Assembly: GCA_050249955.1 (NCBI GenBank)
Contig: JBFWPN010000002.1
Location: 392,442 to 456,441, forward strand
Direction: 5' to 3'
Length of the DNA: 64,000 bases
Source: Vicinamibacterales bacterium
GTDB lineage: Bacteria > Acidobacteriota > Vicinamibacteria > Vicinamibacterales > CAVVIG01
Position numbers and translations under genes: made by a program. The notes below the pieces were generated by a model, which ran no database searches, was not told where the DNA came from, and saw only the letters and a program-made list of their open reading frames with translations. How positions within the stretch are numbered: the stretch's first letter is position 1; the number at the start of each line of letters is the position of its first letter. Shown here piece after piece: positions 54,959-56,971 of the stretch.

Positions 54959-56686
54959 TCAGCCGTGGAAGGGGGCCGGCGCGAACACCCGGTTCGCCTC
55001 GCCCAGTTCGCGAGCCGAGGGGGTGACGATCGCCCGCTCGGAGACGACGAGCGTTCGACCCTCGCGCATGGCCTTGCGGACATCCTCCTCGCAGACGAAG
55101 TCCAGGGGCGGGGCATCCGAACCGCTTGTGGCTGCCGGACCGGCGGACGTGGTGCCCCCGTCCGTGGCCGCGACACCCTTGTAGCCGCGCGACCCCAGGA
55201 ACTGCTCAATCCGCTGCGTCAGCACCTTGGACGTGATGCCGGCCGAGGGCGCCACACGCGCCGGGCCCGACACCGGCAACGTGATGCCGGATGCCCGCTC
55301 GAACCGGTTCGGCACGGAGGTGACTTCGTAGGCCAGCCGCTTGATGTTGAGCAGGTGCCGCGGAGTGATGTTGTCCGACGTGATGTTGCCGCCGTAGCCG
55401 CCGCATCCCAGTGTCATCGCGGGATCGAGACCCGAGGAGATGCCGGTGGATCCGAACGTGGTCGGCGTGTTCACCGCAATGCGGAAGGCCGGTTTCTTCA
55501 GCCCGAACTCGAGGATCACCTGCTCGTTCTGCGAGTGGATCCCCATGGTGTGACCCATGCCGCCGTACCGCAGGATCTGCTTGCAGCGTTCGCAGCCCTC
55601 GCGCCAGTCGGCCACCACGTAGAACGAGAGGACCGGGCACAGCTTCTCGATGGACAGGGGGTGGTCGCGGCCAACCCCGTCGAGTTCGGCGATGAGCACC
55701 CTGGTGCCGTCCGGCACGGTGATGCCGCAGGCGCTGGCGATGGCGACCGCGGACTTCCCGACCAGCGTTGGATTCGGTAGCCGCTGGGGAGTGACCAGCA
55801 CCGCCGCCACCTTGCTGCGCTCCGCCGGGCTCAGGAAGTGGCACCCCTGCGCCTGGAACTCGCGCTTCACCTGCTCGGCAATCGGCGCATCGACGACCAC
55901 GGAGTTCTCCGACGAGCAGAGCACGCCGTTGTCGAAGGTCTTGCCGGTGATGATGTCGCGCACGGCCTTCTTCACGTCGGCCGTCCGCTCGATGTAAGCA
56001 GGGGCGTTGCCCGGTCCGACGCCGTACGCCGGCTTGCCGGCCGAGTAGGCGGCGCGCACCAGGCCCATCCCACCGGTGGCAAGGATGACCGCCACCTCGC
56101 GCTGCTTCATCAGCTCCTGCGTCCCTTCGAGCGACACCGTCGTCATCCAGCTGATGGCTCCCGCGGGCGCTCCCGCGCGCCGCGCGGCCTCATCCATCAC
56201 TTCGGCCACCCGTGTGATGCACGTCACGGCCGACGGGTGCGGGCTCAGGACGATGGTGCAGCGGGCCTTCAGGGCGATGAGAATCTTGTAGATGGCGGTC
56301 GACGTCGGGTTGGTCGACGGGACGATGGCCGCGACGACGCCGAATGGCTCGGCGATCTCGACAACCCGCCGCTCCTCGTGCCGTGCCACGACCCCCACCG
56401 TCTTCATGCCCTTGATGAAGTCGTAGACCTTGCGGGAGGCGAACAGGTTCTTCTGGATCTTGTCTTCGTAGACGCCGAAGCCGGTCTCGTCCACGGCCAT
56501 GCGGGCGAACACCTCGGCCTGCGCGGTGGCAGCCTCGGCCATCGCGGTCACGATGGCGTCAATCCGTTCCTGGGAGAACTCGGCGAGTTCGAGCCAGGCC
56601 TGCCTGGCCCGGCGGGCGAGGGCACGGGCCTCGGCGATGGACGCGAGGTCGCGATCGCCGTGGGGGCTGACGGCGGCGTCGGCCAT
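54959..56686 (-). CDS. CoA-acylating aldehyde dehydrogenase (AdhE-N/EutE/PduP family) with a 120-aa C-terminal extension
   Basis: Catalytic Cys context [15 protein letters not shown]. The core ends [29 protein letters not shown] as in AdhE-type acylating ALDHs. 575 aa, against the ~460 aa I recall for typical EutE/PduP. Starts 6 nt after the BMC-H stop. Confidence 0.9.
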
Positions 56687-56692
56687 CGGCGG

Positions 56693-56971
56693 CTAGGCGC
56701 CCTTCGGCAGGATGCGCTCGACCTCGGCGTGAGGGCGCGGAATGACGTGGACGGACACCAGCTCACCGACCCGGCGGGCAGCTGCGGCCCCGGCGTCGGT
56801 GGCGGCCTTCACCGCGCCGACGTCGCCACGGACCATGACGGTGACGTACCCGGCGCCGATGTACTCCTTCGCGATCAGCGCGACATTGGCGGTCTTCACC
56901 ATGGCGTCGGCCGCTTCGACCGAGCCGATCAGCCCCTTTGTTTCCACCAGTCCCAGCGCGTCGTGTGCCAC
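56693..56971 (-). CDS. Bacterial microcompartment shell protein, BMC-H (PduA/EutM/CcmK type, Pfam PF00936 fold)
   Basis: GTG start with AGGAG 7 nt upstream. [92 protein letters not shown] is collinear with PduA along its whole length. 92 aa. Confidence 0.93.

Follow-up and report, generated by a model that had tools for sequence, protein, structure and literature searches.

A candidate shell-docking module on the C-terminal tail of an acidobacterial microcompartment aldehyde dehydrogenase

Results

The Aldehyde Dehydrogenase Gene

A 64,000-nucleotide stretch of DNA from a Vicinamibacterales bacterium of the phylum Acidobacteriota (GenBank assembly GCA_050249955.1, contig JBFWPN010000002.1, positions 392,442 to 456,441; hereafter, the window) carries a gene for an aldehyde dehydrogenase (ALDH) whose product ends in a tail of about 120 amino acids (aa). 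In this tail, a helix resembling an encapsulation peptide (EP) is followed by a small folded module, and we consider it fairly likely that the module docks the enzyme onto the shell of a bacterial microcompartment (BMC), the helix serving to cluster cargo. The ALDH open reading frame lies on the minus strand at positions 54959-56686 and encodes a product of 575 aa. Directly upstream there is a gene for a BMC-H shell protein, whose end is 6 nt ahead of the ALDH start (Table 1).

Table 1. Features of the ALDH gene, its shell-protein neighbour and the other BMC loci of the genome. Coordinates are those of the window; AF2, AlphaFold2; CoA, coenzyme A.
Feature	Position	Strand	Basis
Catalytic body, CoA-acylating aldehyde dehydrogenase (probably type I, AdhE-N-like), residues 1-455	55322..56686	-	TIGR02518, PF00171
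Linker 1, T456-A482; opens with a conserved VPNRFERA turn/short helix, remainder variable in length	55241..55321	-	homologue alignment; AF2
EP-like helix region, G483-K503	55178..55240	-	AF2 helix 486-499; conservation; EP in PMC8217296 Supplementary Data 2
Linker 2, low-complexity Gly/Ala/Thr/Ser/Pro, residues 504-526	55109..55177	-	free variation among homologues; AF2
Terminal folded module, P527-G575, strand-helix-hairpin-helix-strand; candidate shell dock	54962..55108	-	AF2; NCBIfam and hhalign matches
ALDH stop codon	54959-54961	-	
BMC-H shell gene, 92 aa, starts MAHDALGL...	56693..56971	-	PF00936 E=3.1e-27
BMC-H and ALDH	contig C2 (window)		
Main locus: class II aldolase with C-terminal EP-like helix, BMC-H, three BMC-P (EutN_CcmL), 2-hydroxyacid dehydrogenase (2-Hacid_dh)	contig C17		
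Lone BMC-H	contig C11		

The ALDH matches TIGR02518 with E=3.4e-184 and 613.3 bits, narrowly under the cut-off of 620.1, its residues 11-475 being aligned to positions 1-466 of the 488-position profile; the catalytic Cys257 is invariant among the 103 homologues aligned. The match to the AdhE-type profile NF010378 runs out at residue 453. Taken together, the ends of these two matches place the ~120 residues past ...KRLAYEV outside the ALDH fold. At the opposite end, position 1 of TIGR02518 pairs with residue 11, so the protein has no N-terminal extension and, as an earlier note made on this DNA from its letters had claimed, no targeting helix there.

Architecture and Conservation of the Tail

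The tail is built, from N to C, of a linker, a helix region, a low-complexity linker and the terminal module. A database search with the tail as the only query retrieved 613 proteins at E<=0.01 (the top 120 at E<=1e-23), nearly all of them ALDHs of 570-595 aa from Vicinamibacterales and other Acidobacteria. In the alignment of homologues, helix and module are near-invariant; the two linkers differ freely in length as well as in composition. The invariant residues include L489, F496, L497, R500 and G501 of the helix, constant across the 103 homologues, and F530, V531, C532, E533, D535, V536, R537, G543, T555, P556, A558 and R559 of the module. Such conserved islands between variable linkers are a pattern typical of two functional elements that are flexibly tethered. 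The VPNRFERA segment (residues 458-465, positions 55294-55315) just past the ALDH fold is also conserved in the family and lies within the reach of TIGR02518, which extends up to position 466 of 488.

The AF2 model of the full-length ALDH, built with the 103 homologues, has a helix at 486-499 and a short one at 461-466. Its pLDDT is ~88-93 for the module and falls below 50 for residues 469-481 and 504-523, on which account we judge the linkers to be disordered and not packed. The four-part tail described in the earlier note is real. The coordinates given there for the module (54983-55105, L528-F568) are exact; for the helix, given as 55187-55237, the end coordinate stands, while the start falls one codon short, since I484-G501 correspond to 55184-55237. 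Two checks proposed with that description, a secondary-structure prediction of the helix region and a Pfam search of the tail, have been carried out, yielding the AF2 helix 486-499 and no family, respectively.

The helix is flanked on both sides by variable flexible linkers, as expected of an EP, and we regard it as probably amphipathic on account of its conserved VLxxxIxxFL pattern and its helical AF2 model. It shares with the classical EPs (the N-termini of PduP, PduD, EutC and EutE, and the C-termini of type I AldDh enzymes) a conserved helix of ~15-20 aa with the VLxxxIxxFL spacing and poorly conserved linkers. Unlike these terminal peptides, it is internal, with 72 further residues, including a folded domain, following it.

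Identity of the Terminal Module

Modelled alone, the module reaches a pLDDT of 91.2 and consists of a strand (2-5), a helix (7-16), a hairpin (20-28), a helix (30-38) and a strand (42-44). A fold search of the PDB found no solved structure resembling this model, a PDB sequence search with the module profile gave chance matches only (designed mini-proteins, E 0.4-0.9), and Pfam returned no family for the ALDH tail at E<=1. When 29 diverse module sequences were run against NCBIfam with hmmscan, the matches were to BMC families only and always at the family termini. Of the 29 sequences, 28 matched TIGR02536 'eut_hyp' (profile positions 165-200 of 207, best E 8e-5), 21 matched EutQ (NF012001, 5-39 of 233, best E 0.003) and 11 matched PduM (TIGR04493, 117-149 of 153, best E 0.016); the controls, a reversed module and 9 shuffles, gave nothing at E<=1.

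Profile alignment with hhalign brought the module together with residues 5-40 of E. coli K-12 EutQ (N-terminus MKKLITANDIREAHARGEQAMSVVLRASIITPEAREVADLLGF) at a probability of 86% and E=4.9e-6, and with residues 17-41 of E. coli K-12 EutT (N-terminus MKDFITEAWLRANHTLSEGAEIHLPADSRLTPSARELLESRHLRI) at E=3e-5. The AF2 model has the two helices of a small fold expected from EutQ H1/H2, the EutQ helices being taken from PMC12487888. In the mixed-host alignment, T-P-x-A-R is invariant across all host proteins of the module. Overall, we might conclude that the module is probably homologous to the N-terminal H1/H2 of EutQ, and that a weak but consistent relation joins it to EutQ, EutT, PduM and TIGR02536. 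For PduM and TIGR02536, this relation is one of profile matches; for EutQ, the other side of the comparison has no diversity, since all sequences returned by a search with its N-terminus were near-identical ones from E. coli, Shigella and Salmonella. The earlier note had tentatively mentioned FVxExDVR...IxTPxAR-type segments on BMC-associated proteins, a suggestion borne out by the matches of the module to PduM and TIGR02536 at their C-termini and to EutQ and EutT at their N-termini.

The first ~48 residues of EutT (E. coli K-12 eutT) look like another copy of the module, …LTPSARELLESRHLRI, and EutT may use the same docking element as EutQ.

We also considered the ALDH as a whole-family member of EutQ (PF06249), PduM (PF15953) or TIGR02536 and rejected this assignment: the similarity covers only ~35-40 terminal profile positions, scores 12-26 bits against cut-offs of 50-193, and comes without a cupin.

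Other Proteins Carrying the Module

A profile search of 1.84 billion proteins gave 614 matches; among the 150 matches listed, all were ALDH tails or fragments of them, and no other host was seen. In the sampled Acidobacteriota genomes, the same module appeared as secondary matches at the N-termini of RpiB-like proteins, DeoC and class II aldolase. These copies match TIGR02536, PduM, EutT and EutQ more strongly than the ALDH copies do, with E-values down to 6e-6, and most of them are preceded by a classical EP helix, e.g., DRIRALVRDVLDKIP or ADELRQLVCKAVEQI. The N-to-C order of EP, linker and module is therefore the same in the N-terminal cassettes of RpiB and DeoC and in the C-terminal cassette of the ALDH, being opposite to that in EutQ, where the module comes first and the helices after it. 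Preservation of this order at both protein ends suggests that the cassette moves as a unit.

One DeoC relative has, in the second half of its module (EGAIITPAARDRARELG, residues 70-86), a match to the first helix of the peripheral subunit-binding domain (PSBD), PF02817 E3_binding (positions 2-18 of 36, E=6e-4), which may reflect convergence or distant kinship. This match, together with the likeness of the TPxAR(D/E)L helix to the first PSBD helix, would be in line with another view of the module, namely that it serves another enzyme as a small adaptor, or acts as a regulatory element, for instance a PSBD-like handle recruiting a partner dehydrogenase or aldolase, and is not a shell dock. We hold this to be quite improbable, for the module in the window has no PF02817 match, the DeoC relative covers half of the PSBD only, and the consistent matches of the module are BMC assembly proteins. 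Moreover, enzymes of several unrelated kinds carry it, and its occurrence is confined to genomes with shell genes, as detailed below.

Searching the window's own genome by tblastn revealed no second copy of the module, and the broader profile returned a single marginal one, on an RpiB-like protein. This RpiB/LacAB-fold protein (contig C2, ~129555-130187, plus strand) has a module-like N-terminal extension, MKRFEIITEAEARVIPVGDTVSLAKGGHVTPLAHDTLRERRVTVV, with E=0.07 for the mixed profile. At the position of the E. coli catalytic Cys66 it has Asp (IDGAG), as reported for the 'dead' RPIs of the SPU type. The microcompartment described below may have in this protein another unlinked cargo or an adaptor.

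Co-Occurrence with Shell Genes

Of 301 Acidobacteriota genomes sampled, 123 had the module, and PF00936 was also present in 122 of these 123; the sole genome without shell genes contributed a match in a frame of 38 aa with E=4e-4. Neither the module nor a shell gene was detected in 138 of the 301. With the broader mixed-host profile, 137 of 138 positive genomes had shell genes. It is important to note that the genomes are related to each other, so these counts describe a pattern and not independent trials. In the genome collection, the module is encoded in at least 560 species-representative genomes. ALDH tails of the Vicinamibacterales type, at 76-80% identity, also turned up in two metagenome bins, one labelled 'Acidimicrobiia' and the other 'Bifidobacterium sp.'; these are probably errors of binning or labelling.

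The earlier note had allowed that the tail might turn out to be common on ALDHs of shell-less genomes, or that a sequencing frameshift had created it; the survey just described speaks against the former, and the same tail on more than 600 homologues excludes the latter. Conservation and co-occurrence with shell genes likewise rule out any artefactual origin by frameshift. More generally, the idea that the tail is an artefact of frameshift or read-through, or else an ordinary ALDH oligomerisation tail that has nothing to do with microcompartments, seems to us extremely improbable, given that the same in-frame tail recurs in >600 proteins and 122 sampled genomes, that the 138 shell-less genomes of the sample yielded no copy of it, that its linkers are predicted to be disordered, and that its architecture has been published for the AldDh family.

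Genomic Context

The BMC-H encoded in the window retains the K53 and D57 of EutM. A BMC-H gene on the same strand stands immediately ahead of the ALDH gene in all related loci with enough upstream DNA (73/73). The shell genes of the genome comprise three BMC-H loci and one BMC-P triplet. The aldolase of the main locus (Aldolase_II, 312 aa) terminates in ...YRELSALIEDAIRSLK. The ALDH gene and the main locus are situated on contigs C2 and C17, their separation being known only as that of different contigs in a 28-contig assembly.

This arrangement is that of the ACI type in the microcompartment catalogue of Sutter, Melnicki, Schulz, Woyke and Kerfeld (2021, Nat Commun 12:3809, PMC8217296, Supplementary Data 2), in which the AldDh is encoded apart from the main locus. 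Of the main-locus components in the catalogue, our genome has the pfam00596 aldolase with a C-terminal EP, the pfam00389/02826 hydroxyacid dehydrogenase, the BMC-P triplet and the BMC-H; the comparison covered these and not the three unknown proteins. The host agrees as well, because 78 of 80 related loci are labelled Vicinamibacterales, Acidobacteriota or Acidobacteria, as are the closest homologues. The ALDH itself has an EP near its C-terminus (486-499), followed by a domain of ~50 aa (527-575). Judged by gene content, the genome holds an ACI-type microcompartment, and the BMC-H/ALDH pair is a satellite of its main locus. Like the ACI satellite AldDh of PMC8217296, the ALDH in the window belongs to an acidobacterial host, is probably a type I (IPR013357/TIGR02518) enzyme, is encoded off the main locus, and has a BMC-H alongside; there is no architectural difference, and the protein is one further member. 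The earlier note thus rightly took the ALDH for a microcompartment cargo enzyme, and its internal helix fits the EP of the catalogue.

The third BMC-H is solitary (contig C11, ~163409-163747, minus strand), lies beside DUF1501/DUF1800-like genes and is distant from the other BMC loci. This agrees with the catalogue's remark on stand-alone extra BMC-H in ACI genomes.

The tail architecture as such is already in print (PMC8217296, Supplementary Data 2), and the catalogue gives no identity to the ~50-aa domain at the AldDh end. What is new is the proposed identity of this domain: we found no link between the unknown ACI domain and EutQ, EutT or PduM in the searchable literature.

Discussion

The usual explanation for the targeting of enzymes to BMCs invokes nothing more than a short amphipathic helix. 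The ALDH tail described here contains such a helix and, beyond it, a folded module whose relatives have been studied in other systems.

In EutQ, residues 9-41 (H1/H2) contact the shell, according to deletions, imaging, isothermal titration calorimetry and nuclear magnetic resonance (Yang et al. 2025, Sci Adv, PMC12487888), and loss of residues 1-100 abolishes EutM binding (Held et al. 2016, PMC4827028). The EPs of EutC and EutE are bound further along, by residues 62-99 (H3/H4), the flexible segment between H1/H2 and H3/H4 being required; H1/H2 show no chemical-shift change with EP peptides, and their deletion leaves EutQ with the cargo (PMC12487888). In the Eut system, the amphipathic EP helices make contact with H3/H4 of EutQ and not directly with the shell (PMC12487888). 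Gram-positive EutQ is devoid of H1-H3, and TIGR02536 occurs there; in an atlas of complexes from 2026, TIGR02536 is predicted to bind EutL (PMC13181095). PduM, too, links shell and cargo (PMC9132943).

The module and EutQ H1/H2 (residues ~3-45) share the motif h-I/V-T/C-x-x-D-V/I-R ... G ... A-I-I/V-T-P-x-A-R-E/D and two helices. Both are terminal on a flexible linker beside an amphipathic helical element, and both occur in microcompartment systems only. They differ in their setting: EutQ, a stand-alone adaptor, has the module at its N-terminus and a cupin/acetate-kinase domain besides, and on the ALDH the module is part of a cargo enzyme, in cis. PduM (PF15953/TIGR04493), itself a shell-cargo linker, matches the module with the last ~40 residues of its profile, but is a free-standing protein of ~160 aa that is similar at its C-terminal end only. 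TIGR02536 of non-proteobacterial EUT2 loci provides the best and most consistent profile match, again at the C-terminal end of a BMC-associated protein; this one is also free-standing (~207 aa), and only its terminal ~40 residues are in common. Finally, the SPU-type RPI and DERA proteins have N-terminal extensions (Dwyer et al. 2024, Commun Biol, PMC11585597), and the acidobacterial RpiB and DeoC relatives carry the EP helix, linker and module, the cassettes being N-terminal there and C-terminal on the ALDH. The extension of RPI was described as an EP with a ~75-residue unstructured linker and that of DERA as an extra N-terminal domain, no connection with EutQ being drawn (PMC11585597).

Keeping in mind these precedents, we may sketch how the tail could work. 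The ALDH would be a lumen enzyme of the ACI-type microcompartment, and its tail a targeting cassette of two parts joined by flexible linkers. The module would dock the enzyme on the lumen side of the shell, the probable site being the BMC-H of the gene directly upstream or a groove between shell tiles, and the helix would probably bundle with the EPs of other cargo, such as the C-terminal EP of the main-locus aldolase, to form an enzyme core. We see the module as a better candidate for the shell contact than the helix because of its homology to the shell-binding H1/H2 of EutQ. Since its genome has no free adaptor with the module, the ALDH would then itself tether cargo to shell, possibly assisted by the RpiB-like protein with a similar module. 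As a whole, this division of labour, in which the module docks on the shell and the helix, an EP, clusters cargo, is in our opinion somewhat more credible than not; both the shell protein bound by the module and the role of the helix in cargo clustering are what we infer as probable from the comparison with Eut and Pdu proteins.

The roles of the two elements could also be exchanged. The helix would then be a shell-binding targeting peptide, as proposed for PduP and PduA, and the module would work on the cargo side, e.g., by clustering the ALDH with core enzymes or by binding their EPs. Besides aggregating cargo, classical EPs reportedly bind shell proteins (PMC11585597), L489, F496 and L497 of the helix are invariant, and PduM, with the module at its C-terminus, remains with the cargo once its shell contact is broken. 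However, the EutQ counterpart of the module, H1/H2, is a shell-side element by its lack of response to EP peptides and by the retention of EutQ on cargo after its deletion, and the part of EutQ that does bind EPs, H3/H4, is absent from the ALDH tail. We therefore regard the exchanged roles as unlikely, and the proposal of the earlier note, which gave the module no assignment, that the helix is the signal for the adjacent BMC-H as probably wrong, given that the relative of the module is what binds the shell and that EPs are bound by H3/H4 (PMC12487888).

Several points weigh against the module being a shell dock and the helix a cargo-clustering EP. The shell set of the genome consists of three single-domain BMC-H and three BMC-P, without any BMC-T, while the proposed site of EutQ is the EutM/EutL interface, which includes the BMC-T EutL, and PduM acts via the N-terminus of PduB, so that both depend on BMC-T. 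In a genome without BMC-T, the partner of the module would have to differ from those of EutQ and PduM. When the PduB N-terminus is missing, PduM goes with cargo and not with the shell (PMC9132943), so that members of the module family may touch not the body of the shell but cargo or an extension of the shell. The module may also pack back on the ALDH body. The resemblance to EutQ is also a short and weak one, with 35% identity in 34 aligned columns and hmmscan E-values of 0.003-0.07 for individual sequences, and convergence on a small motif may be its source. As to the helix, its Eisenberg hydrophobic moment of 0.37 is unremarkable, being equalled or exceeded by 25% of shuffles; this moment is not what our tentative assignment of amphipathic character is drawn from, and the internal helix, labelled an EP in the PMC8217296 catalogue, is a candidate for a classical EP.

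It is tempting to suppose that the module is a widespread and portable shell-docking domain, a second, folded signal beside the EP, acting in trans on the adaptors EutQ, PduM and TIGR02536 of Eut and Pdu microcompartments and in cis on the AldDh, RpiB-like, DeoC, aldolase and EutT proteins of ACI, SPU and related microcompartments. The ACI ALDH would then be a shell-to-core tether, and the adjoining BMC-H paralogue its dedicated receptor. We offer this wider scenario tentatively, as one rather more apt to prove too broad than right. If the dock shared by EutQ, EutT, PduM, TIGR02536 and the ACI and SPU cargo is a true one, encapsulation uses a two-part signal, and the "unknown" domain and "unstructured linker" labels in the ACI and SPU literature would gain a function. 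For engineers, the module would then be a compact and well-folded tag for attaching enzymes to shells. Such a dock would also explain how core and shell are joined in the ACI compartments, abundant in soil Acidobacteria, without an EutQ- or PduM-like adaptor.

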